NCBI GenBank assembly: GCA_021844355.1
Contig: JAKBTP010000203.1
Coordinates: 1-38,871, forward strand
From: a bacterium
Lineage (GTDB): Bacteria; Chloroflexota; Dormibacteria; Aeolococcales; Bog-877
Direction: 5' to 3'
DNA: 38,871 nt
The position numbers were made by a program, and so were the translations under genes. The stretch's first letter is position 1. Every line of letters starts with the position of its first letter. The notes beneath the pieces are model-generated. The model was not told the DNA's origin and ran no database searches. It saw only the letters and a program-made list of their open reading frames with translations. Of this stretch, positions 9,841-25,213 are shown in pieces.

Positions 9841-10639
9841 TTCGCGGCCGCCGCCCCAGGAGGCGGTATCCCCGGGCCCGGGATCCGCTCAGGGTGATCT
9901 GGATCGCCTCCCGGCGGGCTGCCTCTTCCGCGGAGTCGTCAAGGTGGGACCGGTCCAAGGTGGTCCCCGTCCGGCCGGCGGCGGTGAACAGCCACCAGTC
10001 GGCGAGGGCTGGATTCTTGGGCAGGAGGGGCCCATGCAGGTAAGTCCCGATCACCGAGCCCAAAACCGCTCCCTCCGCACCCGAGTCTCCGTCGTTCCCC
10101 CCGCCCCGCACCACCTTCCCCAGGGGGTGCAGCCCCGGCTCCAGGATGGTCCGGCCCGAATGGTTCTCGAAGCCGACGAGAAGGGGATTGGCCAGGCCGA
10201 GTCCGGGGTTGGCGGCGACCAGGATGTTGCCCACCAGGCGGCGACGGCCCGCCTCGGTGCGCAGCGGGAGGATGCCCAGGCCGGGGATGAGATCGCCAGC
10301 CGCCGTCCGGTAGTGTTCCCCCAGCAGCTGGTAGCCGGCACAAACCGCCAGGAGGGGAGCGCCGCTGGACACCTGCTCCCGGAGCGCCGGTCCCTTGCGG
10401 GTCACCAGATCATGAGCCAGGGCCAGCTGGTCCATGTCCTGCCCGCCCCCGATCAGGAAGCCCGAGCAGGCCTGGATCTCCCCGGGATCGCCGCCATCGA
10501 GGCCCAGGGTGGTGACCTCCAACTCCACGCCCCGGAGCGCGGCGCGGCGGACCAGGGCCAGGACGTTTCCGCGGTCGCCGTAGAGGTTCATCTCGCGGGG
10601 GTACAGCACGCCCAGCCGCAGCGAAGTCGACCCGGTCAT
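9824..10639 (-). CDS. gatD: lipid II isoglutaminyl synthase, glutaminase subunit GatD (CobQ/CobB-type GATase)
   Basis: LRLGVLYPREMNLYGDRGNVLAL, LLAVCAGYQLLGEHY (nucleophile Cys), GLGILPLRTEAG..RLVGNI, GTYLHGPLLPKNP. The start ATG shares 1 nt with the murT stop (TGATG). Confidence 0.85.
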   Translation of the reverse strand: MTGSTSLRLGVLYPREMNLYGDRGNVLALVRRAALRGVELEVTTLGLDGGDPGEIQACSGFLIGGGQDMDQLALAHDLVTRKGPALREQVSSGAPLLAVCAGYQLLGEHYRTAAGDLIPGLGILPLRTEAGRRRLVGNILVAANPGLGLANPLLVGFENHSGRTILEPGLHPLGKVVRGGGNDGDSGAEGAVLGSVIGTYLHGPLLPKNPALADWWLFTAAGRTGTTLDRSHLDDSAEEAARREAIQITLSGSRARGYRLLGRRPRIRRTG

Positions 10640-12039
10640 CAGCCTTCGGCCCAGAAGGGCTCCGCGCCCCCGGCTCCGACCACTGCTCGGTGCCAGGCCA
10701 GCATCGCGGTGTAGGTGAGCAGGGACGGGGCTGGCATCCCCGGTGCGGCCCTCTCCGCCAGCTCATCCAGCGCCTGCTCCGGCGCGGGCCGGACCATGAG
10801 CCGCGGCTCGGCCAGTCCCGCGTACCGGAGACGCAGTGCCAGCTCTGCCGCCCGCCGTCCGCTCACCACGATCCACCGGGGCCCGCTGTCGGCCAGCTTC
10901 TCGAACTCCACGTCCCAGATCCATGAGATGTCGGTGCCGTCGGCGACCCCGTCGTTCAGGGCCAGCCCGAGCACCGGACCCGCGTCTCCACTGAGCACCG
11001 CCTCCAGGCTGGCCTGCATTCCCGCCGGGTTCTTGGCCAGAAGGAGACGCACCTGGCGCTGACGCCAGCGCACCACCTGGGACCTGCCGAAGGCGGGGCG
11101 GAACTCCCGCAGACCGCGCTCGATCTGATCCCAATCGGCGCCCATCTCCCGCGCCGCCGCCGCCGCCGCCGCGACGTTGGCGGCGTTGTGGGCACCCGCC
11201 AGGGGCACCTCCAAGGGCCCGACGCCTCCGCCAGGGCCCGCCAGGGTGAGCTCCAGATGGTCCAGGCCAGCGGTGAGGACCCGGGTCACCCGCAGCGCCG
11301 GCGAGGGGCGGGACCAGCCGCAAGCGGGACAGCGATAGTCCCCGCACTGACCGTAATAGACGGCGCTGAACTGAAGCGACCCTCCGCAACGGGGGCAGAC
11401 CGGACGGTCGGCGGACTCCGGTAGCCCTCCGCGGTCCGCTTCCCGGTCCTCGATTCCGAAGAAGGATGCCTTGGGCGCCCGGTCCAGGGCCGCTATGCGC
11501 GGGTCGTCAGAGTTGAGGACCGCCACCGCCGTCTCGGGAAGCGCGGCCACCGCCTCCCCGAGGCGAGCCGCGACCTGGTCCACCTCGAAGGACCGGTCCA
11601 GCTGGTCGCGGAACGCATTCAGCACCACCAGAATCCTCGGCTGCACCTCCCTTGCCGCCGCCGCCGCGCTCAGCTCGTCGACTTCGAGCACCAGCCAATC
11701 CAGATCCATTTGTCCCCGGAGATCGGCTTGGGCGATGGCGGCGGCGGTCAGGCCGTAGATCAGGTTGGAGCCGCTCTGGTTCCCGCCGATGCGCCACCCC
11801 GCCGCGGCGGCGATCCGCCGGAGGAGAGCGGAAGTGGTGGTCTTGCCATTGGTACCCGTGACCACCACGATGCCCCGCCGGGGAGACGCCGCCAGCTTGC
11901 GCAGGACCCGGGGATCGATGGTCCTGGCGACATCGCCCGGGAGGGTCGTGCCACCTCCCATCCTCAGGCCGCGCGAGGCCCAGGCGGTGACCTTCCCCCC
12001 CAGGACCGCCAGCCTCATACGGGGGTCCGCCCGAGTCAT
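10639..12039 (-). CDS. murT: lipid II isoglutaminyl synthase, Mur-ligase-family subunit MurT
   Basis: VVVTGTNGKTTT P-loop, four-Cys zinc ribbon (CPRCG...CGDYRCPACG), and C-terminal DUF1727-like part adjacent to gatD. ATG at 12039 forms an ATGA overlap with the ispE stop; the upstream 151 codons of the track ORF are antisense-type Arg/Gly/Pro junk. Confidence 0.85.
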   Translation of the reverse strand: MTRADPRMRLAVLGGKVTAWASRGLRMGGGTTLPGDVARTIDPRVLRKLAASPRRGIVVVTGTNGKTTTSALLRRIAAAAGWRIGGNQSGSNLIYGLTAAAIAQADLRGQMDLDWLVLEVDELSAAAAAREVQPRILVVLNAFRDQLDRSFEVDQVAARLGEAVAALPETAVAVLNSDDPRIAALDRAPKASFFGIEDREADRGGLPESADRPVCPRCGGSLQFSAVYYGQCGDYRCPACGWSRPSPALRVTRVLTAGLDHLELTLAGPGGGVGPLEVPLAGAHNAANVAAAAAAAREMGADWDQIERGLREFRPAFGRSQVVRWRQRQVRLLLAKNPAGMQASLEAVLSGDAGPVLGLALNDGVADGTDISWIWDVEFEKLADSGPRWIVVSGRRAAELALRLRYAGLAEPRLMVRPAPEQALDELAERAAPGMPAPSLLTYTAMLAWHRAVVGAGGAEPFWAEG

Positions 12040-12896
12040 GCCGGCACTGTCGCGCGGATCGGCAGCCCTGGCAGGGCGGCACGGGAGGCGGCCAGCGCCG
12101 ACCCCGCCTCGGCGGCCGGGACAAGCGCGAAGAAGGCCCCTCCGCTGCCGGTCATCGCCCAGCTCAGATGAGGCGTGGCCGCCCGCAGCCGCTCGAGCCG
12201 CGGCGCCAGCTCGGGGGCTACGCGCAGGGCGGCAGCCTCGAGGGCGCTGCCGAAGAGTTCCGGAGCTGGAAGCTCTCCATTCCTCAGGGCCTGGGCCATC
12301 GCCGCTGCCCGGCTTCCGTCGGTCATCTCCCCGCTCTTGACCGAGGAGTACGCCCTGGCGGTCTCCACAGCCCCCAGCACCGCCACCAGGATCACCGTGG
12401 GCGCCAGGCAGGGGAGGGGAGTGAGCACGTCGCCCACCCCGCCCAGGAGGGCCGCTCCGCCGCGGAGCGCGAACGGCACGTCGGCGCCGCACTCGAGGGC
12501 CACGTCGACCAGAGGCGTGGACAAGTCCTCGCCGGCGGCGAGCCGGAGCACGGCCGCGGCGTCGGACGACCCTCCCCCGAGACCGCTCTTGGTCGGTATG
12601 CGCTTCCAGATCGCCACCGACACCACTCCCCGGCCCACCCCATGGCGGTGGAGGGCGTCGGCCGCCCGGGCCACGATGTTGTCGGGCCCTTCTGGCACCC
12701 CCTCCCGGAATGGCCCTGTGACCGCCACCGCTATCCCTCCGGGGGTGCCTGGACGCGGGTCCAGCTCGGCGGCCACCAGGTCGCTCCAGGCCACGGTCTG
12801 GGAGACTGCGGCCAGGAGGTGGAAGCCGTCGGCTCGCCGGCCCACCAGTTCCAGGGCCAGGTTCAGCTTGGCGGGGGCCATCGCGACTTCCAGCAT
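12036..12896 (-). CDS. ispE: 4-diphosphocytidyl-2-C-methyl-D-erythritol kinase
   Basis: APAKLNLALELVGRRADGFHLL and the GHMP kinase motif IPTKSGLGGGSSDAAA. Possible starts are ATG 12896, ATG 12881 or GTG 12953. Confidence 0.85.
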   Translation of the reverse strand: MLEVAMAPAKLNLALELVGRRADGFHLLAAVSQTVAWSDLVAAELDPRPGTPGGIAVAVTGPFREGVPEGPDNIVARAADALHRHGVGRGVVSVAIWKRIPTKSGLGGGSSDAAAVLRLAAGEDLSTPLVDVALECGADVPFALRGGAALLGGVGDVLTPLPCLAPTVILVAVLGAVETARAYSSVKSGEMTDGSRAAAMAQALRNGELPAPELFGSALEAAALRVAPELAPRLERLRAATPHLSWAMTGSGGAFFALVPAAEAGSALAASRAALPGLPIRATVPA

Positions 12897-13435: not shown

Positions 13436-14386
13436 TCAGCCGGCGCGGGGCGACAGCTCCGCCACCATGTGGGCCAGTAACGTCTCCAGACCCTGGATGG
13501 CGTCGAGTCGACCCACGCGAATCTCCCAGTCGAGGTCGGCCAAGGCGACCAGCCAGCGGCGCAGCCGCGGTGCTCCGGCCCGTCTCAGCTGGCGACTCAT
13601 CCGCTCGGCCTTCCAGGACGGGAGGGCGCCCAAGCCGCCGTCGGCCATGGAGATGAGGTCCCGGAGTGCCCTGGCCAGCGCACCGATCACCAGTTGAGGG
13701 GGCACCTCAGGACGTGACAGCAGACCGGAGAGGAGGCTTCCCACCCGGGTGGGAGCGTCGAAGATGGCATCGGTGAGGCGGTAGAGCTCCCGCGGGGGCA
13801 CCGGGGTCAGGAGCCGGTGGCCCACCTCCTCGCCCACCGGTTCTCCGGTGCGGTCGGGATACAGCGCCAGCTTGTCCAGCTCCATCTCCAGACGGCCCAG
13901 GCTCTCGGCGGCGATCTCCACCAGCTTCGGCGAGAGTTGCGCCGCGAGGTTGAGGCCGCGGGCCCGCACGCGCTGGTCGACGTGGTGTCGGAGCGCGGCT
14001 CCCTTGGGACGGGGGACCAGCCGCACCTCCGCTCCGAGCTCGCGGAGGCCGCGGTGCAGGTTGTTGGTGGCCGGCACCAGGGACCGCACCACGACCATCA
14101 CCGCCGTGGTGTCCGCCCGGTGGGAGATGGCGCGGAGCAGGTCCTCCGTCTCTCGCGATCCGCGGGGGCCGATCTGCGGGTCCCAGAGGACCACCACCCG
14201 GCGCAGCGCCAGGAACGGGGGGCTGGCCAGGCTTCGCTCGATGGCGTCGCCGTCGGAGAGGTCCCTGAACTCCTCCAGCCCCAGTTCGGATCCCATCTCC
14301 GCCACCAGTTGGGTGCGCAGGGACACCGCGGCCTCGGTGACCAGATAGCGGTCCTCTCCGTGGAGAAGGACCAATGGCTCGGGCAC
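13436..14386 (-). CDS. holA: DNA polymerase III subunit delta
   Basis: LVLLHGEDRYLV N-terminus, clamp-loader delta layout, and position next to rpsT (common synteny). GTG at 14386 verified; the track ORF extends to 14497 and would overlap the divergent gene. Confidence 0.75.
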   Translation of the reverse strand: MPEPLVLLHGEDRYLVTEAAVSLRTQLVAEMGSELGLEEFRDLSDGDAIERSLASPPFLALRRVVVLWDPQIGPRGSRETEDLLRAISHRADTTAVMVVVRSLVPATNNLHRGLRELGAEVRLVPRPKGAALRHHVDQRVRARGLNLAAQLSPKLVEIAAESLGRLEMELDKLALYPDRTGEPVGEEVGHRLLTPVPPRELYRLTDAIFDAPTRVGSLLSGLLSRPEVPPQLVIGALARALRDLISMADGGLGALPSWKAERMSRQLRRAGAPRLRRWLVALADLDWEIRVGRLDAIQGLETLLAHMVAELSPRAG

Positions 14387-14454
14387 CGCTCGATTATCCC
14401 CGCGCCGCTGCCGGCTTGCCTTGAGCCCCCTCAGCCCGTCAGCATTGGGTTGCA

Positions 14455-15720
14455 GTGCTGCTGTCTGCCTTCCCGAGCCCGCAACCCCGGTTGCCACTGG
14501 GCACCCTGGGCGCTGAGTTCGCCATCGGGGCGACCTTCCTCATCCACATCGCCATCGTGGGCTACATCCTCGGGGCCGCCGGTATCGCCCCCTTCATGGA
14601 GCTGGCCGGGAGGCGACCCGGGGCCAGCCCCAACTGCCTTCGCTATGCCCGGGGGCTGGCGCATTCGGTCCTCTATCTGTACAGCTTCGGGGCCACCTGG
14701 GCGGTCTTCGCGGTGGTGCTGCTGACGGGGCTCTACGGCCGCCTCATCGGTACCCTGCTCAACCTCCTGCTGCTCCCGCTGACCATCGCCTTCGCCAGCT
14801 TCTTCGTGGGCATCCCCCTGCTGCTGCTCTACGTGTACGGGTGGGAGCGACTGGGGCCGAGGCTCCACCTGGGGGTGGGCCTCGCATTCGCCCTGATCCA
14901 ATACCTCTTCCTCTTCATGATCGTCCAGCTGGACAGCTTCGCCCTAACCCCGGGGACGGCGGTCAGCGCGGCTCACGCCATGTACTCGCCGAGCTACCCC
15001 TGGCTGCTGCTCCACTACGCCGGCGCCACCCTCTCCTGGTCGGCGCTGGTGCTGGCGGCGATCGCCGTCTGGAGGGCGCGGCGTGCCAAGACCGAGGAGG
15101 AGCGCCAGTACCACACCTGGACGAGCCGGGTCACCTTCGCCATCGGGTCGATCTTCCTTCTGGCCCAACCGATCTCCGGGTTCCTTCTGGCCGAGGCGAT
15201 CAAGACCAGCTCCATCGGGGCCTTCGACAACCTGTTCGTCTTCAACTCCGGAAGCATGTTCATCGGCCAGGTGGGTCTTCTGGCGGTGGTGGTGGTGGGG
15301 GCGAACCTCGTCTTCTGGCTGCACCGGGGACCGTCGTCCGGACCGGGCGCGGGGCTGACTGCGATCTCCCTGCTGGGGATGGCGGGCACAGCGCTGCCGG
15401 CTGCCGTCCTCCCCTCGGATCTCGTCTGGCTGCGCTACACGGCGCTCTTCGTGGCGTTCATCGCCACCGCGATCAACCTCGGCCGCTACCTTGTCGAGGT
15501 CCGTCGGGGGGGCGCCGGGGTGCCGCTGGCCCCCATGGTCCCGCGGGCCATGGGCGCGGTGGCTGTGGCGGCGCTCGCGCTCACCATCTTCATGGGGGTC
15601 GTGAAGGAGAACGCCAAGCTCCCCTGCGGCATAGATGCCGGCACCGGGCAGACCTCCTGCCTGCTCTCGCTGCACCAATCGGCGCAGAACTTCAACGCTC
15701 CGCCGGGGACCCTTCCATGA
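14455..15720 (+). CDS. cytochrome bd subunit-I-like membrane protein, degenerate paralogue (A)
   Basis: About 9-10 TM. By-eye matches to CydA landmarks: TM1 His (FLIHIAIVG), LPLTIAFASFFVGIPLLLLYVYGWERLGPRLH versus CydA [33 protein letters not shown], TM5 His (LLHYAGATLSWSALVLAA), and C-terminal GVVKENAKLP. It lacks the two helix-3 Glu. GTG start at 14455. Confidence 0.6.
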   Translation: MLLSAFPSPQPRLPLGTLGAEFAIGATFLIHIAIVGYILGAAGIAPFMELAGRRPGASPNCLRYARGLAHSVLYLYSFGATWAVFAVVLLTGLYGRLIGTLLNLLLLPLTIAFASFFVGIPLLLLYVYGWERLGPRLHLGVGLAFALIQYLFLFMIVQLDSFALTPGTAVSAAHAMYSPSYPWLLLHYAGATLSWSALVLAAIAVWRARRAKTEEERQYHTWTSRVTFAIGSIFLLAQPISGFLLAEAIKTSSIGAFDNLFVFNSGSMFIGQVGLLAVVVVGANLVFWLHRGPSSGPGAGLTAISLLGMAGTALPAAVLPSDLVWLRYTALFVAFIATAINLGRYLVEVRRGGAGVPLAPMVPRAMGAVAVAALALTIFMGVVKENAKLPCGIDAGTGQTSCLLSLHQSAQNFNAPPGTLP

Positions 15721-15950
15721 ACTATCAGGACTTCGAGTCGGCCTGGTACCTGGGGCTGATCATCACCTCCTTCTTCGTGATCATGCTCGCAGGGTTCTGG
15801 ATGGCCATCCGCCGAGTCCGCCAGCTCTTCGTGGCCGGGGACACGATGTCCGGCTGGCTGACCATGGGAGCCAGCTTCTTCACCTTCGTCTTCTTCCTGG
15901 GCCTCTGCCTCAGCCTCTTGATCCTGCTGGTGGTGCGCGGCAGTGCCTGA
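15717..15950 (+). CDS. small two-TM membrane protein (77 aa)
   Basis: ATGA overlap with the stop of the preceding gene (15717-15720). Two hydrophobic helices (WYLGLIITSFFVIMLAGFWMAI, GASFFTFVFFLGLCLSLLILLVV). GC3 bias. It is embedded in the C-terminus of the longer track ORF 14841..15950. Confidence 0.55.
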   Translation: MNYQDFESAWYLGLIITSFFVIMLAGFWMAIRRVRQLFVAGDTMSGWLTMGASFFTFVFFLGLCLSLLILLVVRGSA

Positions 15951-16461
15951 CCAGGAGCTGGCCATCTCACAGCGTCGGATGTCCCGGCGCAAGTTCATGA
16001 CCCTGGGCATCCAGGCGACCGGTGCGGGGATCGGCCTCCTCATTGGGGCTCCGATCGTGGGCTCGATCCTCAGCCCAGCCTTCTACAAGGGCCGCTACCC
16101 ATGGGTGATGGTGGCCGACATCCAGCACGTCCCGGTCGGGGTCCCCACCGCTTATGTGGTCCTCATGGACCAGGGCGGGGACGCCTGGCAGGTGCCGCCC
16201 GTGCCCCGCACGGTCTACGTGGTCAAGCTCAACCTGAACGGCAAGGTGCAGCTCATCACCCTGTCCAACGTCTGCACCCACATGCAGTGCGACGTCCACT
16301 GGGACATCAACCTCAACGTGTTCCTCTGCCCCTGCCACGGTGGCCTCTACAGCATTGACGGGACCAACATCGGCGGCCCCCCCCCACAGCCGCTCTTCCG
16401 CTACCAGCACAAGTTGGTCGGCAACACCCTGTACGTCCGCAACGTGCTCACGGAGGGGTAG
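15943..16461 (+). CDS. Rieske [2Fe-2S] protein with twin-arginine signal
   Basis: Tat motif SRRKFMTLG plus TM anchor. Cluster boxes CTHMQCDVHW and CPCHGGLYS (bc-type, with disulfide Cys). GTG at 15943 overlaps the upstream stop by 8 nt; ATG at 15979 is an alternative. Confidence 0.9.
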   Translation: MPDQELAISQRRMSRRKFMTLGIQATGAGIGLLIGAPIVGSILSPAFYKGRYPWVMVADIQHVPVGVPTAYVVLMDQGGDAWQVPPVPRTVYVVKLNLNGKVQLITLSNVCTHMQCDVHWDINLNVFLCPCHGGLYSIDGTNIGGPPPQPLFRYQHKLVGNTLYVRNVLTEG

Positions 16462-16464
16462 GGG

Positions 16465-17673
16465 ATGGCCGCCGAGAGAAGCCGTCTGGCAGGTCGCCTG
16501 AGCCGGCCGTTCGCCGGGATCATGGCCACCACCTACAGGTGGGTGGACGAGCGGTTGGGGGTCACCGACCTGGTCCACCAGCTCCTCTATGAGGCGGTGC
16601 CGCGGCGGGGAGCGTGGGCCTACTCCCTGGGCAGCGCGACCCTGATCCTGATCGTGAACCAGATCGTGACCGGGATGTTCCTGCTGTGGACCTACGTGCC
16701 CTCAACCACCGAGGCCTGGGAGAGCCTCAACTTCACCGAACGGCACGACGAGTTCGGGGCCATCGTGCGGGGGATGCACCTCTGGGGCGCCTACGTGCTC
16801 TTCGTGGTCATCGGGCTGCACATGGTCCGCACCTTCGTGAGCGGCTCCTACAAGAAGCCTCGAGAGCTCAACTGGATCGTGGGCGTGGTCCTCTTCCTGC
16901 TGGTGCTGGGGCTGGGGATCACCGGGGCGATGCTGCCCTGGGACCAGGCCGCCTACTGGACGGCAACCGTGGTGACCCACGTCGTCGAGTACTTCCCCAT
17001 CTTCGGGACCCAGTTGCAGGAGATCCTCCGGGGCGGGCCCCAGATGGGGCCGGCCACCCTGACGCGCTTCTTCGCGATTCACATCTGGCTGCTGCCGGCC
17101 CTGCTGGTTCCCCTCATCGGGCTGCACCTGATCTTGCTTCGGCGTCACGGCGAGCACGGGTCCTGGGTCAACTACGAGGGGGTCGAGGAGGAGACCGCGG
17201 AAGAGCGGGCCCGGCGGATGGCTCACGTCGAGTACCCATACCCGGCCATACCCTCGGACCCCGGATATGCGGTGCCGGTGGACCTCGACGAGTTCTTCCC
17301 CTCCCAGGTGTTCAAGGACTCGGTGGTGAGCTTCGGGCTCGTGCTCCTCATCTTCGTCATGGCGGTGGTGGTGGGCGCCCCCCTGGAGCGCGCGGCCAAT
17401 CCGGCCGCCCTCAACTACGTCCCCACCCCGGAGTGGTTCTTCCTCCCGCTGGACCAGATGCTGGTGCAGTTCCCCCAGGCGTGGATGATCCCGGTCGGGG
17501 TCTTCATCGTTCCGGGGATCGGGACCACCCTACTGATCTTGGTACCCTTCCTCGACCGGACCCCGGGTCGGGAGCCATGGCGCCGCCCCGAGGTGATGAT
17601 CCCGGCCCTCTTCGTGGTGCTGTTCCTCGTCTTCGAGGCGCTGCTGGCGGTGAACCGGCTCTTCAACCTCTGA
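16465..17673 (+). CDS. cytochrome b (fused b6-like N-domain plus subunit IV-like C-domain)
   Basis: Haem ligand pairs GMHLWGAYVLFVVIGLH (H-x13-H) and AIHIWLLPALLVPLIGLH (H-x14-H). Qo-loop motif TPEWFFLP. 402 aa with no Cys residues. Confidence 0.9.
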   Translation: MAAERSRLAGRLSRPFAGIMATTYRWVDERLGVTDLVHQLLYEAVPRRGAWAYSLGSATLILIVNQIVTGMFLLWTYVPSTTEAWESLNFTERHDEFGAIVRGMHLWGAYVLFVVIGLHMVRTFVSGSYKKPRELNWIVGVVLFLLVLGLGITGAMLPWDQAAYWTATVVTHVVEYFPIFGTQLQEILRGGPQMGPATLTRFFAIHIWLLPALLVPLIGLHLILLRRHGEHGSWVNYEGVEEETAEERARRMAHVEYPYPAIPSDPGYAVPVDLDEFFPSQVFKDSVVSFGLVLLIFVMAVVVGAPLERAANPAALNYVPTPEWFFLPLDQMLVQFPQAWMIPVGVFIVPGIGTTLLILVPFLDRTPGREPWRRPEVMIPALFVVLFLVFEALLAVNRLFNL

Positions 17674-17674
17674 T

Positions 17675-19066
17675 ATGCACTTGATCCTCACTTCCACCCC
17701 GCACCTCACCCCGGTCCCCATCTCCACCGGTGTGGCGACCGCCCTGGTCGCCCTGCTGATGCTTGGCCACATCCAGTTCGCGGCCTTCCAGCAGGGCGGG
17801 TACATCATCCTGGCCGTCACCGACTTCATGGGCTGGAAGCGTCGCAACCCCCACTACGACCGCTTCTCCAAGGGGCTGGTCACAGTGCTGGGGGCGACCT
17901 TCGCGGTGGGGGGCTCCCTGGCGATCTTCGCCGTGATGGTCCTCTTCCTGGGGCTCTGGAGCCACTTCTTCGTGACCCTGGAGCGGATCCTGTTCTGGCC
18001 CTTCGTGGCCGAGGCCGCCGCCTTCGTCGGCGAGATCATCTGCCTCTACCCGCTGTACGCGCGCTGGGACCAGCTGGGACGGGTGAGGGGGCTGCGGGTG
18101 GGTCTCGAGCTCCTCCTCTTCATCAACGCCAGCATCCAGATGCTGATGATCAACGTGGTGGCCTCCTACATGCTGACGCCCCGGCCGGCCTTCAACCTGC
18201 CGCTCATCCTCATGAACCCCACGGAGATCCCTCTGGAGATGCACCGCTTCGTGGGCAACATCGCCTTCGCCGGGGCGATGGTGGCGCTGGTGGCGGGGAT
18301 CCGCCTTCTCTGGCGCTCCCGTCAGCAGCTGCACCGCGCCTACCTGGACTGGATGGGGCACTACGGGCTGATGTGGGCGGTGGGCTTCACCATCGCCCAG
18401 CCCCTGGTCGGGTGGGAGTACGCCAAGGAGATCCAGCTCCACGCCTACGCCTCGTGGTACGAGATGATGCTGGGCGGTCTGTCGGTGGCCTTCCTCTTCC
18501 AGGTGTTCCTCCTGGGGGCGATCTTCACCGTGGGGATCTTCTACCTCTGGCGCCGGGTCCGCGTCAGCGGCTTCCGCTCGCCGGCGCTGGCGGTGTGCAC
18601 CGCCCTCTCCTTCGCGGCCTGGCTGCTTATATCCACCCCTTCATCGCTGGCCTGGAGCTACGAGAGCGTCTTCGCCGCCAACGCCAATGTCCCCATCTGG
18701 CAGGGGGGGCTGCTGATCCCCTGGGGGCAGATGATCCCCTGGAAGCTCACGGCCCTCATCGTCTTCACCGGGGTGGCCATCACCGCGATCACCGTCTATG
18801 CCGTCCACCTCTCCCGGGGCAGGCTGCACTGGGGGGACGCCGGGCGGGGACAGGCCATCTCCCTCATCACCGTGGGCGTGGCCATCTCCCTGATCATGGC
18901 GCTTATGGGGTACATCCGCGAGGACAGCCGGGGCCCCTTCCTGATCACCAACCACATGCTCATCAATCAGCAGCAGAATTACACCCCGCCCTCCACCAGC
19001 GGCCCGGCGCTCAATGGTCCGGCGAGCAATCTGGGGGCCATGGCTCCCACCAGGACCGGACCGTGA
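17675..19066 (+). CDS. cytochrome bd subunit-I-like membrane protein, residue-complete paralogue (B)
   Basis: About 10 TM. TM1 His (LMLGHIQFAAF). FWPFVAEAAAFVGEIICLYPLYARWDQLG versus CydA [29 protein letters not shown] (both Glu retained). TM5 His (EMHRFVGNIAFAGAMVALVAG). C-terminal GYIREDSRGPF versus CydA GWFVAEYGRQPW. The loop after TM6 is only about 20 aa. The ATG lies 1 nt after the cyt b stop. Confidence 0.65.
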   Translation: MHLILTSTPHLTPVPISTGVATALVALLMLGHIQFAAFQQGGYIILAVTDFMGWKRRNPHYDRFSKGLVTVLGATFAVGGSLAIFAVMVLFLGLWSHFFVTLERILFWPFVAEAAAFVGEIICLYPLYARWDQLGRVRGLRVGLELLLFINASIQMLMINVVASYMLTPRPAFNLPLILMNPTEIPLEMHRFVGNIAFAGAMVALVAGIRLLWRSRQQLHRAYLDWMGHYGLMWAVGFTIAQPLVGWEYAKEIQLHAYASWYEMMLGGLSVAFLFQVFLLGAIFTVGIFYLWRRVRVSGFRSPALAVCTALSFAAWLLISTPSSLAWSYESVFAANANVPIWQGGLLIPWGQMIPWKLTALIVFTGVAITAITVYAVHLSRGRLHWGDAGRGQAISLITVGVAISLIMALMGYIREDSRGPFLITNHMLINQQQNYTPPSTSGPALNGPASNLGAMAPTRTGP

Positions 19067-19506
19067 GGCTGGTGTTCAGGCCGATCCGGCGGGCGGGTGA
19101 GGAGCTCCGCGCGGTGACCCGAGAGCCCATCTCCCGGCACCTGGAAACCTACATGGAGATGCACTCCTTCGGCTTCCCCGACCGGCCCACTCCCGAGGAC
19201 CTCCCCGTCTCGGTGCGGATAGCGGCCGCCGCCAAGGAGATCCACGATCGCGCCGCCATCCTCTCGCCGGTACTGCGCCGCTTGGAGAACCTGGGCTGGG
19301 ACGTTCACATCGACGGTGATCAGGTGGTGGCCTCCACCCCCCTGGACCCTGAAGCCGGGTGGGACTTGCTCCGCCATCAGGGGATCGGCGACCAGATCCT
19401 CGGCCTGGCGGAGCGCTCCAGTGACCTCCCGCCGGCGCGAGTGGCGGTCGGTGGAGGCGAGCCGCAGGATCCCTACCTCACCGAGCCCCTTGAGGGCCCG
19501 GGGTAG
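19063..19506 (+). CDS. hypothetical soluble protein (147 aa), last gene of the Rieske/cyt b/bd-like operon
   Basis: GTG at 19063 forms a GTGA overlap with the stop of the preceding gene. Very strong GC3 bias through the whole frame. No TM segment and no recognisable motif. It lies within the C-terminal part of track ORF 18373..19506. Confidence 0.5.
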   Translation: MRLVFRPIRRAGEELRAVTREPISRHLETYMEMHSFGFPDRPTPEDLPVSVRIAAAAKEIHDRAAILSPVLRRLENLGWDVHIDGDQVVASTPLDPEAGWDLLRHQGIGDQILGLAERSSDLPPARVAVGGGEPQDPYLTEPLEGPG

Positions 19507-20048
19507 GCGGCCACCTCGTCGATCAGCCGGTAGCGCCGAGCCGCTTCCGGCCCGAGGATGAGGGCAGAGGCGAGGTCCGCCTCCACGAGCTCGATCGGCC
19601 GCGCGGTGGCTCGGGCCACCTGCTCCGCCCACCGCTGCTGATCTCTCAACTCGGCGTCGAGGAATCCGGCCAGGTCGGTCAGGGCCCCCTCCATCTGCAG
19701 TCGAGGGGCGGCAAAGGCGAGCCGGCAGTTGGGTGTGGCCACCCGGTGGCCGGCGACCGCCAGCACGCCGAGGCCGGGGCCCCGCACGGCGCCCACCGCC
19801 GTGACCTCGGTCAGGATGCCCAGCGCCGTGATGGTGTCCATGACCGTCAGGGCGGCGCCGAACTCCCCAGACGAGGTGAAGAGGTGGACGCGCGCCGGCT
19901 CGTCGGAGACGGCGTCACGCTCCATGAGCTGGGCGGCCGCGCGGGTGGCCAGCCGCTGGTCCAGGTGTCCCTGGATCAGGATCATCCCCCGCGCGGACAG
20001 CTCCTCCTGGAGCATGGCCCAGCCCGGCGGGGGCGCCTCCTCAGTCAC
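19473..20048 (-). CDS. ClpP-like protein lacking the Ser-His-Asp triad (ClpR-like pseudoprotease)
   Basis: Collinear with the active ClpP in this window, but GMGMSAAAMIL becomes GAVRGPGLGVL (Ser to Gly), IMIHQG becomes LAFAAP (His to Ala), and DIDRDYFL becomes EADLASALIL (Asp lost). GTG at 20048 overlaps the HTH stop by 8 nt; ATG at 20015 is an alternative. Confidence 0.7.
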   Translation of the reverse strand: MTEEAPPPGWAMLQEELSARGMILIQGHLDQRLATRAAAQLMERDAVSDEPARVHLFTSSGEFGAALTVMDTITALGILTEVTAVGAVRGPGLGVLAVAGHRVATPNCRLAFAAPRLQMEGALTDLAGFLDAELRDQQRWAEQVARATARPIELVEADLASALILGPEAARRYRLIDEVAAYPGPSRGSVR

Positions 20049-20415: not shown

Positions 20416-21108
20416 TTGACCGCCGGCCTGGTCCCGACCGTCCTGGACGGCTCGGCAAGGGGGGAGAGGGCCTACGACATCTTCTCCCTGCTGGTGAAGG
20501 AACGCATCCTCTTCCTGGGAGAGGAGGTGGACGACCGCGTCGCCAACCTGCTGGTGGCGGAGATGCTGTACCTGGAGAGCCAGGACCCGGAGAGCGAGAT
20601 CCAGCTCTACATCAACTCGCCCGGGGGAATGGCCTACGCCGGCTTCGCGATTTACGACGTGATGCAGCAGGTGAGCTGTCCGGTGGCCACCACCTGTATC
20701 GGGATGGGGATGTCGGCCGCTGCGATGATCCTGTGCGGTGGGGCGGCGGGAAGGCGGATGGCGCTCCCCAGCAGCAAGATCATGATCCACCAGGGCACCG
20801 CCGGAACGCGGGGCGCCCCCCGGGACATGGAGATCCAGCTGCGCGAGGTGCTGGCCAACACCCGGCGGATGGCGGAGATCATCGCCCACCACTCCGGTCG
20901 ACCGCTGGCCCAGGTCGAGCGTGATATCGACCGGGACTACTTCCTCACTGCGGCGGAGGCCGTCGAGTACGGGATCATAGACCAGGTCCTGGTCCCGCAC
21001 CGCGGCCTCTCCGCCGCCCAGGCCGCGACTGCTGTGGCAGCGGCGGACTCCGGGGTCCCTGAGGCGTCGTCCCGGGAGGGGGGGAAGACTCCCCACCCAC
21101 CTGGCTGA
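20416..21108 (+). CDS. clpP: ATP-dependent Clp protease proteolytic subunit (catalytically intact)
   Basis: LVPTVLDGSARGERAYDIFSLLVKERILFLG, YINSPGG, GMGMSAAAMIL (Ser), IMIHQG (His), DIDRDYFLTAAEAVEYGIIDQV (Asp). TTG start at 20416 with GGAG 8 nt upstream. C-terminal tail of about 35 aa. Confidence 0.9.
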   Translation: MTAGLVPTVLDGSARGERAYDIFSLLVKERILFLGEEVDDRVANLLVAEMLYLESQDPESEIQLYINSPGGMAYAGFAIYDVMQQVSCPVATTCIGMGMSAAAMILCGGAAGRRMALPSSKIMIHQGTAGTRGAPRDMEIQLREVLANTRRMAEIIAHHSGRPLAQVERDIDRDYFLTAAEAVEYGIIDQVLVPHRGLSAAQAATAVAAADSGVPEASSREGGKTPHPPG

Positions 21109-21220: not shown

Positions 21221-21889
21221 TCAGGAGGGGGGGCGCCCGTGGCGCGCCAGATAGGCGGCGGCCTCAGCTCGCCGGGCCACCTCCAGCTTGTCCAGGATGC
21301 TGGACACGTAGTTCTTGATGGTCTTCTCGGCCAGGTGGAGCTCCGCGGCGATCTCCCGGTTGGTGCGCCCAGCAGCCACCCGGCTCAGGATGCGCTCCTC
21401 CTGGGCTGTGAGGCGCGCCAGGCGTTCGTCGCGAAGCCGGCTTCTGGCCTCTCGCCACTGGTCCAGGACCGTCCGGGTGAGGGCCGGGTCCAGCAGGCTT
21501 CCCCCGGCTCCGATGGCCCGGACCGCGGCCACTATCTCCCCACCGCGGATCTGCTTCAGGAGATAACCGGCCGCGCCGGCCATGATCGAGGCGAACAGCG
21601 CCTCGTCGTCCGCGAAGGAGGTGAGCATGAGGACCTTCGTGTCTGGCCTCCGGGCTCGAATCTCCCGGGTCGCCTCGATCCCACTTCCCGACCCCAGGCG
21701 CACGTCCATCAGGACGACGTCGGGGCTGGTGCGCTCGGACTCCCGGATCGCCGCCGCCTCGTCCGCGGCCTCAGCGACGATCTCGAACTCTCCGGAGGCG
21801 CCCAGGACCGCGCGGAGGCCGTCTCGGACCAGCTCGTGGTCGTCGACCAGCATCACCCGCAACCGACTGCGCGGGGGTTGCTCAGCCAT
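21221..21889 (-). CDS. NarL/LuxR-family response regulator (DosR/DevR-like)
   Basis: Receiver domain (RVMLVDDHELVRDGL, VVLMDVRLGSGSGIE, KVLMLTSF) plus LuxR HTH (LTAQEERILSRVAAGRTNREIAAELHLAEKTIKNYVSSILDKL). The ATG overlaps the kinase stop by 8 nt. Confidence 0.9.
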   Translation of the reverse strand: MAEQPPRSRLRVMLVDDHELVRDGLRAVLGASGEFEIVAEAADEAAAIRESERTSPDVVLMDVRLGSGSGIEATREIRARRPDTKVLMLTSFADDEALFASIMAGAAGYLLKQIRGGEIVAAVRAIGAGGSLLDPALTRTVLDQWREARSRLRDERLARLTAQEERILSRVAAGRTNREIAAELHLAEKTIKNYVSSILDKLEVARRAEAAAYLARHGRPPS

Positions 21890-23492
21890 GGGGCACCACC
21901 AGGCGCAGGCGGGCGCCCTGGCCGGGGGCGGAGGTGATCACCAGCCGGCCCCCCAAGCCCCGAGCTCGATCCCGCATGTTCTGCAACCCCTGGCCGCGCC
22001 CCCGCGCCTTACCCACAGCGAACCCCCGACCGTCGTCGGTGATGGTGACCACGGTGGACCTCGCCTGTGCCCGGGCCCGCACCCGGCAGCTGGCGGCCTG
22101 GGCATGCCGGCCGACGTTGGACAGAGCCTCTCTCGTGAGCTGGAGCAGCTCGCCCGCCTGGGCGCCTAGCCGCTCCTCCACCCCTGCATCCACCTCCACC
22201 ACCGTGTGGACCCCGCTTCGGTCCTGGAAGTCCGCCCCCAGGCGACGCAGGGCCTCGGCCAGCCGGCTGGAGCCCAGGATTCCCGGACGGAGCCCGAAGA
22301 TGTACTGACGAAGGTCCCCGATCACCTGGTCGAGCTCCAGCACCGCCCGTTCGAGCCGCTGGCGGGTGACCTCGTCGGCGGCTGGAGCCACGGCCTGCAA
22401 CCCCATGCCGACGGCGAACAGGGACTGGATCACCCCGTCGTGGAGCTCCTTGGCGATCCTCTCCCGCTCGTCCAGCAGGGCCAGCCGCTGCCGCTCGCGC
22501 TGGCTCTGCTGGAACTCCAGGGCCACGGAGCTCTGGGCGGCCAGCGCGGCGAGCATCTCGACCGCCTCCTGCTCCGGCAGCCGTGCCCCGGCGGGTCCCA
22601 GGGCCAGCAGGGCGCCTCCATTGGGCCCTCCTTCCCCGAATGGCAGGACCGCCAGCGGCGCGGTCCGGGGGCCGCGGCCGTTCCGCGTCGCCGCCGGGAC
22701 CTGTATCACCAGCTGCCGCCCCCGCCGGATCGCGCTGACAACGGGATCCCGGGGGAGGGTACCCAGCCTTCGGGTGAGGGTCCTGGCTCCCGGACCCGCG
22801 GCGGCGAGCACCTCGAGCCCCTGCCGAATGCCAGCGTCCGCGCGAACCAAAAGGGCGGTCCCGCCACCGACCAGCTCCCGGCTGTGCGCGGCCACCAGCC
22901 GCAAGACCTCGGACGGTTCACTTCCGGCGAGGGTGGCCTGGGCCACCTCCCGAAGCGCCGCCAGCCAGTGCTGGCGGGACACTGCCTGCTCGTACAGGGT
23001 GGCGTTGGCTACGGCCACCGCCGCCTGGCCCGCGAGCACCTCCAGCGCCTGCTGGTCGTCCGCGGTGAAGGGCAGTCCACCCTGCTTCTCGGTGAGGTAG
23101 ATGCTCCCGAAGACGGTCCGGCGAATTACTACCGGCGCTCCCAGGAAGGTGTGCATGGGCGGGTGATGGGGTGGGAAGCCCACCGACCTCGGGTCTGAGC
23201 CGAGGTCGTCCAGGCGCAGTGGTGGCCCGGGTCGCAGCAGGGCCCCGAGGATCCCCCGGCCCTCTGGAAGGCTCCCGAGGCGGCTCCGCTCGCCGGTGCT
23301 GATGCCGTGGGTGATGAACTGAGAGATCCCGCCCCCTGGACCAAGGACTCCGAGCGCCCCATACCTCGCCCCGGTGAGCTGGCAGGCGAGCCGCACGATC
23401 CGACGCAGAAGCGATGGCAGCGAGAGCTCGGAGGTGAGCGCCAGGCCCGCCTCCAGCAGTAGGTCACGGCGATCGGAGCTGGCGCTGGCCAC
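21882..23492 (-). CDS. GAF-GAF-HisKA_3-HATPase sensor histidine kinase (DosS/DosT-like)
   Basis: First GAF domain: TGARYGALGVLGPGG...GSLPEGRGILGALL...LRLDDLGSDPRSVGFPPHHPPMHTFLGAPVVIRRTVFGSIYLTEK. From memory this closely matches the haem-pocket region of mycobacterial DosS/DosT. A second GAF follows, then H-box ERIAKELHDGVIQSLF, then an ATPase with DDGRGF and GLQNMRDRA. GTG at 23492 verified; the track ORF runs to 23675. Confidence 0.85.
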   Translation of the reverse strand: MASASSDRRDLLLEAGLALTSELSLPSLLRRIVRLACQLTGARYGALGVLGPGGGISQFITHGISTGERSRLGSLPEGRGILGALLRPGPPLRLDDLGSDPRSVGFPPHHPPMHTFLGAPVVIRRTVFGSIYLTEKQGGLPFTADDQQALEVLAGQAAVAVANATLYEQAVSRQHWLAALREVAQATLAGSEPSEVLRLVAAHSRELVGGGTALLVRADAGIRQGLEVLAAAGPGARTLTRRLGTLPRDPVVSAIRRGRQLVIQVPAATRNGRGPRTAPLAVLPFGEGGPNGGALLALGPAGARLPEQEAVEMLAALAAQSSVALEFQQSQRERQRLALLDERERIAKELHDGVIQSLFAVGMGLQAVAPAADEVTRQRLERAVLELDQVIGDLRQYIFGLRPGILGSSRLAEALRRLGADFQDRSGVHTVVEVDAGVEERLGAQAGELLQLTREALSNVGRHAQAASCRVRARAQARSTVVTITDDGRGFAVGKARGRGQGLQNMRDRARGLGGRLVITSAPGQGARLRLVVPHG

Positions 23493-23520
23493 TGGACAGA
23501 TGAGAACTGTAGCAGCGAAG

Positions 23521-23561
23521 CAGGGCCGAAGGTCCCGAAATTGGCGGGACCTTCGGCCCTG
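23521..23561. repeat. perfect 17-bp inverted repeat with 7-nt spacer (candidate operator or 5'-UTR hairpin)
   Basis: CAGGGCCGAAGGTCCCG aaattgg CGGGACCTTCGGCCCTG; arms at 23521-23537 and 23545-23561 are exact reverse complements. It lies 29 nt from the kinase GTG and 71 nt from the NapH-like ATG, in the divergent intergenic region. Confidence 0.9.
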
Positions 23562-23631
23562 CCGCTTCCGCGGGATATCGCCTACCGTCACCGGTGGAAT
23601 CCCTCGAGTGCCAAAGGAGGTGCATCCCGCC

Positions 23632-25182
23632 ATGGCCCTGCCGCTGAAGGAACTTCCGGTCCGTGACCTGCCCATCCGGGTGCGCCAGCCCTCCCGCGCG
23701 GGGCTGGAGGCTCACTTCGGGCCCACCGACCCGCAGCTCGACGTCTCCCGTGATCCCCGGGTGCGCCGCCTGCTCCGCAGCCGGCCCTTCCAGTTCATGC
23801 TGATCCTGCCCAACCAGATCATCTTCTGGCTGGTGATCGTGACCGGCCTGGTGGGGATCCTGGCTCCCACCCACAACTTCGCCACCGTCATCACCTGGTA
23901 CATCTGGTTTTGCGCCGTGTTCATGCTCATGGTGGGGGTTGGCCGCGGCTGGTGCGTCATGTGTCCCTTCGGAGGCTTCGCCGAGTGGGTTCAGCGCCAC
24001 ACGTTCTGGAAGCGTCACGCCATCTCCATCGGCCTCCACCTGCGCTGGCCGGAGTGGCTCAGCAAGTGGGCGCTGCTGCCCTCCGTGGCCATGTTCCTCG
24101 GTCTCACCTGGTTCGAGGAGTACTTCAACATCGCCGGTCCCGGAGATCCCCGGTTCACCAGCTTCCTGGTCTTCTTCGTGATCGGCTCGGCGCTCATCAC
24201 CTTCCTTCTCTTCGAGCGCCGCACCTTCTGCCGCTACCTCTGCCCGCTCACCGCCCTCATCGGGACCGTGGGGTCCACCGGGATGGTGGCCGGGATGCGC
24301 ACCCGCGACCGGGATCGCTGCCTGACCTGCCCCACCAAGGACTGCATGAGGGGCAGTGAGCGCGGCTACCCGTGCCCCTGGTACGAGTGGCCCGGCAGCG
24401 CCACCTCCAACCTGATGTGCGGGCTGTGCACCGAGTGCATCAAGAACTGCCCCTACGACAACGTCGGGGTCTACCTCCAGAAGCCGCTCACCTCAGTCGT
24501 GGCGCCCGTCCGCCGCCGGGTCGATGTGGCGTGGGCGGTGGCCATCCTGTTTGGGCTGGTGATCTTCCAGCAAGTCAATGCGCTGCCCTTCTACGCACCT
24601 CTGGACCGCTGGCTCAACCTTCACACCGGATTCCCCGGATACCCCAACCCGGTCGACTACCTGGCCATCATCGGTGTGGTCGCCCTCCTGGTGGCCGCCT
24701 ACGCCTTCGGGGTGAGGGAGTTCCTGGCCAAGCGCAGCGTGGCCCTGGTGAGATCCGTGCGCCGGGTGCCGGGAAGAGCGGGCTCCTTCACCAGCTGGTT
24801 CGCGCCCCTGGCCTACGGCTTCATCCCCCTCATGGCTGCGGACTACCTCGCCCGGCAGCTGCCGAGGTTCTGGTACCACGCGCCGCGGATCGTCCCCGCC
24901 ATCTCGGATCCCTTCGGATTCGGCTGGAACCTCTTTGGCACGGCCCACTCCTCCCTCTACAACCTCCACCTCCTGAACCCGCAGGGGGTGGTCGTCAGCC
25001 AGGTGGTGGTCACCGCCATCGGCACCCTGGGCGCCGCCTACGCCACCTGGCGGATCTCCGGGCGCGACCTGGCGCCCCTCACCTCCAGGCTGGCCGGCGT
25101 GAGGCTGATCGGCACCTCCGCCGTGGTGGTTGCCGGCCTCGGCGTGGCGGCCCTCTATGTGGCCATGGGTGGGATGCAGTGA
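23632..25182 (+). CDS. NapH/MauN/NosR-type membrane polyferredoxin with extra C-terminal TM domain
   Basis: ATG at 23632 with AAGGAGG 11 nt upstream. TM helices flank GRGWCVMCPFG and ERRTFCRYLCPL (CxxCP/CxxxCP). Cys-rich ferredoxin segment CLTCPTKDC...CGLCTECIKNCP. About 5 further TM helices follow in the last 230 aa or so. Confidence 0.75.
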   Translation: MALPLKELPVRDLPIRVRQPSRAGLEAHFGPTDPQLDVSRDPRVRRLLRSRPFQFMLILPNQIIFWLVIVTGLVGILAPTHNFATVITWYIWFCAVFMLMVGVGRGWCVMCPFGGFAEWVQRHTFWKRHAISIGLHLRWPEWLSKWALLPSVAMFLGLTWFEEYFNIAGPGDPRFTSFLVFFVIGSALITFLLFERRTFCRYLCPLTALIGTVGSTGMVAGMRTRDRDRCLTCPTKDCMRGSERGYPCPWYEWPGSATSNLMCGLCTECIKNCPYDNVGVYLQKPLTSVVAPVRRRVDVAWAVAILFGLVIFQQVNALPFYAPLDRWLNLHTGFPGYPNPVDYLAIIGVVALLVAAYAFGVREFLAKRSVALVRSVRRVPGRAGSFTSWFAPLAYGFIPLMAADYLARQLPRFWYHAPRIVPAISDPFGFGWNLFGTAHSSLYNLHLLNPQGVVVSQVVVTAIGTLGAAYATWRISGRDLAPLTSRLAGVRLIGTSAVVVAGLGVAALYVAMGGMQ

Positions 25183-25213
25183 CGCTGGCCGGAAGGGCGC
25201 GGGAGAGCTTGGC

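Follow-up and report, generated by a model that had tools for sequence, protein, structure and literature searches.

A Dormibacterota operon that joins a Rieske/cytochrome b module to two cytochrome bd subunit I paralogues of the OR-N5 type

Introduction

How could electrons reach a pair of cytochrome bd-like proteins whose operon supplies a Rieske protein and a cytochrome b, and neither a c-type cytochrome nor CydB? The question is raised by six adjoining genes in a Candidatus Dormibacterota bacterium, within a stretch of 38,871 nucleotides with a G+C content of about 70% (GenBank assembly GCA_021844355.1, contig JAKBTP010000203.1; this whole stretch is referred to here as the window). Two large genes of this operon, A and B, encode proteins resembling CydA, subunit I of cytochrome bd, and they enclose the genes for a Rieske protein and a cytochrome b. 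A previous reading made from the letters alone (the sequence-only reading) had proposed that the operon encodes a self-contained respiratory machine in which the Rieske/cytochrome b module delivers electrons to a bd-type haem site. We find that A and B have the CydA fold, that they correspond to the published types OR-N5b and OR-N5a respectively, and that the operon is a new Dormibacterota example of a type so far known from genomes alone. The enzyme that it encodes would, we think, probably be a menaquinol-oxidising and O2-reducing complex.

Results

The six genes form a tightly packed unit

The six open reading frames (ORFs) lie on the plus strand between 14455 and 19506, and neighbours overlap or are separated by 1–3 nt. 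They comprise gene A (14455..15720; 421 aa, PF01654), a gene for a 77-aa two-helix membrane protein (15717..15950), the gene of a Tat-exported Rieske 2Fe-2S protein of 172 aa (15943..16461; PF00355), that of a fused cytochrome b6/subunit IV of 402 aa (16465..17673), gene B (17675..19066; 463 aa, recognised through its family profile and AlphaFold/Foldseek) and the gene of a soluble protein of 147 aa, P147 (19063..19506). The junction between A and the 77-aa gene is ATGA (15717–15720); that between the 77-aa and Rieske genes is GTGCCTGA (15943–15950), which includes the GTG start at 15943; the Rieske gene is followed by TAG-GGG-ATG (16459–16467), the cytochrome b gene by TGA-T-ATG (17671–17677) and gene B by GTGA (19063–19066). 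All six ORFs, and all five junctions to the letter, are as the sequence-only reading had given them, and the spacing suggests translational coupling at every junction. Since long spurious ORFs are common in DNA of this composition, codon-position composition was also checked. Third-position G+C (GC3) was 0.87–0.94 in each of the six frames, including the two small ones (0.92 for the 77-aa gene, whose product has two hydrophobic segments, and 0.87 for the P147 gene, whose position is kept in relatives), and by this measure all six appear to be genuine.

None of the six products contains a CxxCH motif or matches a cytochrome c family in Pfam or NCBIfam; the cytochrome b has no Cys at all, and neither the ORF list nor Pfam shows a CydB-like gene in the operon. 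The absences noted in the sequence-only reading were thus all borne out. The presumed promoter region is the short divergent gap (14388..14454, no strand assigned) between gene A and a holA-like gene on the minus strand, the start of which is most plausibly a GTG at 14387 (VPEPLVLLHGED...). Neither a sigma-70-like promoter nor an intrinsic terminator was matched within 14200–19800, which is weak evidence consistent with a single transcription unit, and no Rfam family was matched in the window.

A and B are CydA paralogues without a Q-loop

Gene A matches PF01654 with E=5e-12 and a score of 45.6 bits (gathering cut-off 26.2), and its product directly matches a CydA chain in the Protein Data Bank (PDB; 9r2g_A, E=5e-5). 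Used as a single query, B gave no Pfam match and no direct PDB sequence match; it aligns with A at 26% identity over 418 columns (E=3e-19), its relatives at 35–40% identity carry PF01654, and a 16-sequence B-family profile matches Geobacillus CydA (5doq_A) with E=1.4e-13 and also three mycobacterial or corynebacterial CydA chains. Sequence comparison thus shows the two proteins to be paralogous.

AlphaFold models of the two proteins, built on 44-sequence alignments, contain ten transmembrane (TM) helices each (A: pLDDT 85.5, pTM 0.87; B: pLDDT 83.8, pTM 0.85). When these models were compared with the PDB by Foldseek, the ten best matches of each were without exception CydA chains, with probability 1.00 and TM-scores of 0.5–0.65, and CydB chains ranked below them. 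The NrfD-like protein ActC (6btm_C) returned E=0.33 for B and E=0.065 for A with a TM-score of 0.28, and neither A nor B has a Pfam NrfD match; an NrfD-like identity, tried as a candidate, is ruled out by the profile matches and Foldseek scores. On the basis of these profiles and predicted structures both proteins have the CydA fold and belong to the CydA superfamily, as had been proposed from the letters; best matches to NrfD-like or unrelated families, the outcome named beforehand as contradicting the proposal, did not occur.

The Q-loop of E. coli CydA has over 100 residues. In the models the connection between TM6 and TM7 spans approximately 25–30 residues in B (about 240–269) and fewer in A, so the short loop that had been noted after TM6 is seen in both, and neither model has a Q-loop of the E. 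coli kind. The operon therefore encodes neither of the features that mark canonical CydAB quinol oxidases (the qOR families), namely a Q-loop with its quinol site and a CydB. Because B is predicted to have ten helices and a periplasmic N-terminus, as in CydA, its C-terminus is expected to be periplasmic; it takes the form of a disordered tail (residues ~420–463) with pLDDT below 50 from residue 440.

Ligand positions distinguish B from A

Residues were mapped by profile alignment (hhalign) to E. coli CydA and solved CydA chains. E. coli H19 and H186 correspond to H32 and H190 in B, and to H31 and H187 in A. The Glu pair E99 and E107 is represented by E113 and E120 in B, whereas A has A112 and G119 at these positions. 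E445 corresponds to E416 in B and to E385 in A (Ser in a distant orthologue), and R448 to R419 in B, with no mapped counterpart in A. The segment reading GWERLG in A reads RWDQLG in B. The stretch containing E416 and R419 aligns with the E-x-G-R-Q-P-W of CydA, with a score that is weak by itself and is supported by conservation. The motifs that had been aligned by eye (the TM1 His, the GW(D/E)(R/Q)LG-type segment, the TM5 His and, in B, E416-x2-R419) were thus confirmed by profile alignment.

Conservation followed the same division. In a 44-sequence B-family alignment H32, H190, M265, R415 and R419 never vary; E113, E120 and E416 are kept in at least 90% of sequences, with ligand conservation extending to relatives of about 25% identity. 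A 23-sequence alignment has Glu at the E113 position in 19/23 and at the E416 position in 20/23, and the three to four exceptions look like 'b'-type paralogues. M265, invariant in 44/44 and located just before TM7 in the model, is a candidate only for the role of E. coli Met393; by its invariance and Met393-like position it is possibly the second b558 ligand. In the A family, Ala occupies the E99 position in 14/14 sequences. H31 and H187 of A are invariant in 14/14 sequences despite loss of the channel Glu pair, and A may, on this sequence pattern, itself have one or two bound haems.

The CydA landmark residues are consequently complete in B and only partly kept in A, which has both His and lacks both channel Glu; to treat the two as equivalent bd-like proteins was mistaken, since the Glu pair and the motif of the E445/R448 type are present only in B. 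B, whose residues provide haem ligands and a proton channel from the cytoplasm, looks like the catalytic subunit. A, which lacks both channel Glu and retains of these only the two His, looks like a stand-in for CydB, by analogy with the archaeal CydAA' enzyme; its occupation of the CydB position would explain why the operon has no CydB gene.

The Rieske protein and cytochrome b resemble those of bc1 and b6f complexes

The Rieske protein carries a Tat motif (SRRKFMT, residues 14–20) and both cluster-binding boxes (box I, C111-T-H-M-Q-C116; box II, C129-P-C-H132), and its nearest PDB matches are the Rieske protein of Aquifex bc1 (6kls_A) and PetC of b6f. In Pfam the 402-aa protein was assigned to PF00033 (E=9e-47) and PF13631, with a weak match to PF00032. 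An end-to-end alignment of its N-terminal half with cytochrome b6 (1vf5_A, E=4e-47) places H105/H119 and H206/H221 at the positions of the four haem-ligand His; matches to QcrB are much weaker than this b6-type match. A Qo-type motif of the PEWY kind, PEWF, is found at residues 326–329 in the C-terminal half, and we conclude from these alignments that the protein is a fused b6/subunit IV cytochrome b with its Qo motif intact.

The module thus has the Rieske boxes, Tat signal, four haem His and PEWY-type motif of bc1 and b6f complexes, without their c-type acceptor subunit (c1, f or dihaem cc). Two b6f-specific features are also missing: the petB- and petD-like parts are fused rather than split, and Ser stands at the position of b6 Cys35, which binds haem cn covalently. 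NCBIfam scores of the cytochrome b fall below every equivalog cut-off, and it is therefore a divergent member of the family and not a b6f or bc1 orthologue.

The A/B pair corresponds to a published type

The sequence-only reading had taken the published Q-loop-less bd families to be linked only to cytochrome c or NrfD-like partners. This was wrong: from genomes, Murali, Gennis & Hemp (2021) described an OR-N5a/OR-N5b pair in an operon with petA/petB/petD, and the architecture had therefore already been described. In their scheme the 'N' in OR-N denotes Nitrospirota, a quinol site is confined to qOR, and OR-N5 proteins have ten TM helices and no Q-loop. Quinol was likewise already inferred in print to be the donor, via petABD; because the mechanism proposed for the window coincides with that published inference, its novelty had been overstated. 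The phylum table of the same study marks Dormibacterota in what appears to be the OR-N column (Murali et al., 2021).

The OR-N5a of Rubrobacter xylanophilus is listed with ten helices, H24, E104, E111, H183 and E406, and no Met393; the OR-N5b row has H34, A115, T122, N137, H202 and S405 (S/E/T) (Murali et al., 2021, Supplementary Table 6). The reference pair is WP_143528031.1/WP_143528035.1, with TMC48000.1 and TMC47996.1 as further references, and OR-N5 a/b pairs are 28–32% identical (Murali et al., 2021). B fits the OR-N5a row (H32, E113, E120, H190, E416) and A fits the OR-N5b row (H31, H187, A112, G119, E385), while the A-type protein of a metagenome locus (L002) has the T, N and S of Rubrobacter OR-N5b. 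The window operon has, furthermore, ten helices in each protein, no Q-loop, and Rieske and b6/subunit IV genes between A and B. By the published table and description, the pair is thus OR-N5a-like (B) and OR-N5b-like (A).

No Rubrobacter locus was present among the best 80 of 196 genomes described below or among the named homologues, and a third homologue search with a more diverse profile reached no further and returned neither Rubrobacter nor any other named reference. The literature searched contained no account of a Rieske/cytochrome b-linked bd-like enzyme in Dormibacterota, nor a characterisation of one. Elsewhere, a supercomplex of complex III with bd-like proteins has been proposed from co-expression in Nitrospira moscoviensis (PMC6606698), and in Nitrospirales OR-N5 pairs occur downstream of alternative complex III (PMC12342949).

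The gene order is conserved across Dormibacterota

An exhaustive HMMER search of B against 1.84 billion cluster representatives matched 206 clusters at E<=0.001, of which 19 reached E<=1e-30, so the B family is small. Close homologues of A and B belong, wherever named, to Candidatus Dormibacterota/Dormibacteria; in a cluster look-up the only relatives with a name were from Ktedonobacterales and Myxococcales. A scan of one genome per species with the 16-sequence B alignment as the query identified 196 genomes with a B relative, and the best 80 of these supplied the loci examined, almost all from Dormibacterota metagenome-assembled genomes (MAGs), some labelled Chloroflexota.

Gene order was scored by tblastn with the six window proteins in the 61 loci having at least 3.3 kb upstream of B. 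In 60/61 of them A, Rieske, cytochrome b and B are colinear in this order, 31 belonging to a clade 61–98% identical to B and 29 to a clade at 36–43%, and the order is also kept in the metagenome loci L001, L002 and L084. The arrangement is far beyond chance, and the six genes can be regarded, as first supposed, as a conserved unit in which the oxidase-like genes do not form a separate block and instead flank the Rieske and cytochrome b genes. Within the closer clade, rpsT and the holA-like gene invariably precede the cassette; this constant neighbourhood points to vertical inheritance in a housekeeping setting.

Several records with this cassette (L016, L027, L029–L031, L040, L045 and L049) bear unexpected taxon titles. 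Those with a B 67–82% identical to that of the window are titled Micrarchaeaceae archaeon, Nanopelagicaceae, Verrucomicrobiia or Acidiferrales, and those with a B 39–43% identical are titled Angelobacter, Eisenbacteria or Binatus; L016, L027, L030 and L031 also show the Dormibacterota rpsT–holA synteny. These records are probably mislabelled MAGs.

Some relatives carry relay domains

The architecture varies among relatives. In L002 cytochrome b and subunit IV are split. In L084, a Chloroflexota MAG, the order A-small protein-Rieske-cytochrome b-B is followed by a monohaem cytochrome c gene (L084:9275–9721) in the place of P147. The B relative P0097 (L085:577–2214) has a periplasmic C-terminal cupredoxin (residues 470–542); its gene has a cytochrome b gene upstream (44% identity, stop/start overlap) and a P147 homologue downstream. 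Two further B relatives, P0122 and P0303 (L086:82–1413), have a periplasmic C-terminal cytochrome c domain. These domain arrangements suggest that certain members of the family possess an internal relay from the Rieske protein to the bd-like haems, and that the Dormibacterota operon contains none; given the relay domains of relatives, direct Rieske-to-haem-b transfer in Dormibacterota is no more than a proposal. In a separate and more distant case, a duplicated cluster at L083:494–12978 combines bd-like relatives of 612–708 aa with multiple c-type cytochromes and a protein bearing an EB_dh domain; it fits the published description of OR-N2-type operons.

Two conserved proteins accompany the cassette

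The 77-aa protein has an N-terminal F-(E/Q)-(S/A)-A-W-Y motif, and orthologues are encoded at the equivalent point of the cassette in L084 as well as in the two Dormibacterota clades; the protein had no significant Pfam, NCBIfam or PDB profile match. From its sequence and position it would be a conserved small accessory subunit. P147, which likewise had no Pfam, NCBIfam or PDB match, is predicted to have no TM segment and has no conserved Cys or His. It directly follows B in both Dormibacterota clades, and the homologue after the cupredoxin-fused B relative in L085 was detected with E=4e-9; P147 is conserved and may have an accessory role, in assembly of the complex or as a subunit on the cytoplasmic side. 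P147 was also considered as a degenerate cytochrome c and rejected, with an hhalign probability of 0.3% against the cytochrome c at its position in L084. The Dormibacterota operon is accordingly set apart within its type by these two conserved accessory proteins together with the lack, as judged from the encoded sequences, of any c-haem or cupredoxin relay.

Neighbouring genes

A NarL/LuxR-type response regulator (21221–21889) and a DosS/DosT-like sensor histidine kinase (21882–23675) are encoded on the minus strand beyond the operon; the kinase's first GAF domain resembles the GAF-A domains with which M. tuberculosis DosT (2vzw_A, E=3.8e-44) and DevS bind haem. In eight related loci the response-regulator gene adjoins the cassette, the kinase gene being found in seven of these as well, and in L012, L013 and L029 the pair directly follows the P147 gene. 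The pair may be an O2/NO/CO-responsive regulator of the operon. No DosR-box-like palindrome was found upstream of gene A, and regulation of the operon by this pair is therefore just a lead; the window as a whole has fewer matches to such a site than expected by chance.

On the plus strand, 23374–27040 encodes a 602-aa Fer4_5 4Fe-4S protein followed by a 636-aa GltD-like Fe-S flavoprotein (Fer4_20, Pyr_redox_2), a pair found together with the DosS/DosT-like system in five related loci. The operon is directly followed by two genes of the ClpP family, at 19473–20048 (minus strand) and 20416–21108 (plus strand). One encodes a canonical ClpP (E=5e-69); the other, a divergent 191-aa paralogue (E=1e-13), converges on the end of the 147-aa gene with an overlap of 34 nt. 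On the other side of the operon, both on the minus strand, are a GatD-like pair at 9824–12492, consisting of a MurT-like Mur ligase (PF08353) and a CobB/CobQ-type glutamine amidotransferase, and the polyphosphate kinase gene ppk1 (6681–8828). MurT/GatD-like pairs function in peptidoglycan amidation.

Discussion

A probable respiratory complex fed by menaquinol

We consider it fairly probable that the operon encodes an OR-N5-type respiratory complex in which a menaquinol-oxidising Rieske/b6–subunit IV module is joined to an O2-reducing heterodimer of CydA paralogues. Menaquinol would be oxidised at the Qo site of the cytochrome b, marked by the PEWF motif, and one electron would be recycled through haems bL and bH in Q-cycle fashion while the other reduces the cluster of the Tat-exported Rieske protein. 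The mobile periplasmic head of this protein could then reduce a periplasm-facing b haem of the A/B pair, the likeliest acceptor being the b558-type site of B (His190, possibly with Met265), and the putative di-haem site of B (His32, Glu416) would reduce O2 with cytoplasmic protons delivered via Glu113/Glu120. A would take the place of CydB, with the 77-aa and 147-aa proteins as accessories; physical association of the two modules, the haem types and the stoichiometry are presumed in this scheme. A Q cycle moves one charge per electron, and a bd oxidase also moves one. The two together would give about 2 charges per electron, twice the value for a stand-alone bd oxidase. Of the self-contained machine first envisaged, entry of quinol electrons through the Rieske/cytochrome b module is the most reasonable reading of the operon; its self-containment is an extrapolation, and relatives carry relays.

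Several points weigh against such a complex. Every characterised Rieske/cytochrome b system, to our knowledge, hands the Rieske electron to a c-type haem or a cupredoxin, and a relay may be needed here, with its gene at some other place in the genome. That O2 is the substrate is an assumption drawn from the conserved bd ligands. The retention of both His in A implies that its role may exceed that of a CydB-like scaffold. The OR-N5a row of the published table has no equivalent of Met393 (Murali et al., 2021), and the literature searched yielded no biochemical, structural or expression data on an OR-N5 enzyme. Finally, the equivalent of E. coli H126 in B is Arg141 in the clade of the window; Arg is found there also in part of the second Dormibacterota clade, and His in more distant relatives. 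On the other side, the Caldivirga CydAA' enzyme is reported to reduce O2 with a pair of CydA paralogues containing b haems only, which supports the proposed complex.

Alternative explanations

An A/B pair that is not an O2 reductase, and serves instead as a haem-b electron-exit module substituting for cytochrome c1 or f or as a reducer of another small molecule such as NO or H2O2, seems to us unlikely. OR-N enzymes are without measured activity and the published account describes their O2 affinity as unknown (PMC12342949), quinol peroxidase activity has also been reported for E. coli cytochrome bd (PMC4899803), the H126-equivalent of B is Arg, and A combines two haem-ligand His with the lack of a proton channel, a pattern that would suit a pure electron wire; B, however, keeps all of the O2-chemistry residues checked (the H19/H186 counterparts invariantly and those of E99, E107 and E445 in at least 90% of sequences), and in a simple wire a cytoplasmic proton channel would have no purpose.

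It appears quite improbable that the operon encodes separate, merely co-transcribed enzymes that exchange electrons by way of a cytochrome c or cupredoxin encoded elsewhere, with no obligate supercomplex and no direct transfer. Such carriers do occur in the family, as a fused cupredoxin (P0097), as fused cytochrome c domains (P0122/P0303) and as the cytochrome c gene after B in L084, and the disordered tail of 45 residues in the window's B lies where relatives carry a redox domain. Yet A and B flank the Rieske and cytochrome b genes with start/stop overlaps, in an order found in 60/61 loci, and the six-gene set holds no carrier in the Dormibacterota loci whose gene tables were examined (the window and L001); the gene for P0097, moreover, is still coupled to those of a cytochrome b and a P147 homologue, an arrangement more in keeping with an internal than with a diffusible relay.

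The idea that A and B are NrfD/PsrC-like or unrelated polytopic proteins with chance matches to CydA motifs, for which the failure of B alone to match Pfam or a PDB sequence might have spoken, carries practically no weight and is refuted by the PF01654 score of A, the match of the B-family profile to 5doq_A, and the ten CydA chains retrieved by each model with ActC far lower.

Comparison with known systems

The nearest relatives are the OR-N5a/b proteins, with which the window pair shares ten-helix CydA paralogues without a Q-loop, the residue signatures, an operon with Rieske, cytochrome b and subunit IV genes, and an a/b identity of about 26–32% when the window pair is included (Murali et al., 2021, for the type); the window differs in the fusion of b6 with subunit IV, in Arg at the H126 equivalent of B and in the additional 77-aa and 147-aa genes. 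Canonical CydAB enzymes with CydX/S (qOR1–3; 6rko, 5doq, 7nkz) share with B the subunit I fold and the counterparts of H19, E99, E107, H186, E445 and R448, and probably also the di-haem O2 site and the use of cytoplasmic protons; unlike them, the window has no Q-loop, ten TM helices rather than nine, an uncertain second b558 ligand and a second CydA paralogue in place of CydB, and its electrons are expected to enter via the Rieske/cytochrome b module. In CydAA' of Caldivirga maquilingensis (qOR4a/qOR4b), a second paralogue likewise replaces CydB and has lost the channel Glu, as in A of the window; its CydA, in contrast, keeps the quinol site, qOR4b has lost the H186 equivalent that A retains, and there is no Rieske/cytochrome b partner.

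The actinobacterial bcc–aa3 supercomplex (6hwh, 7e1v) is alike in concept, being an obligate quinol:O2 machine without a diffusible carrier, but there a haem-copper oxidase and a dihaem cytochrome cc are used, whereas the window has bd-like proteins, no c haem and a b6-type cytochrome b. The archaeal SoxM supercomplex of Sulfolobus also combines Rieske/cytochrome b with a haem-copper oxidase, has no c-type cytochrome and uses the cupredoxin sulfocyanin as a relay. In this respect SoxM resembles the cupredoxin-fused P0097, while the window cassette has no cupredoxin. The Nitrospira cluster CIII_1/bd-like_1/bd-like_2 (OR-N1/OR-N2) similarly has Rieske and cytochrome b genes beside Q-loop-less bd-like proteins, but each of the latter has 14 TM helices, and the cluster also encodes several c-type cytochromes along with an EB_dh/NxrC-like subunit.

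Significance

The genomic architecture has been in print since 2021 and the operon is not a new kind of system; the window is of value as a clean, complete and strongly conserved example whose accessory genes and surroundings are defined and which could guide expression and structural work. More tentatively, and with somewhat less than even confidence, we suggest that the Dormibacterota cassette encodes an obligate complex with a direct Rieske-to-b-haem step, a quinol:O2 oxidoreductase free of cytochrome c and copper that translocates about 2 charges per electron, includes two previously undescribed subunits and is possibly under the control of the DosS/DosT-like sensor. If so, direct transfer from a Rieske cluster to haem b would be new to the biochemistry of bc complexes, and the complex would be a third route from quinol to oxygen, beside chains of the bc1/aa3 type and stand-alone quinol oxidases. 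It could join the high O2 affinity and the inhibitor tolerance reported for canonical cytochrome bd with about twice the energy yield, and would then bear on the low-energy life of uncultured soil phyla such as Dormibacterota.

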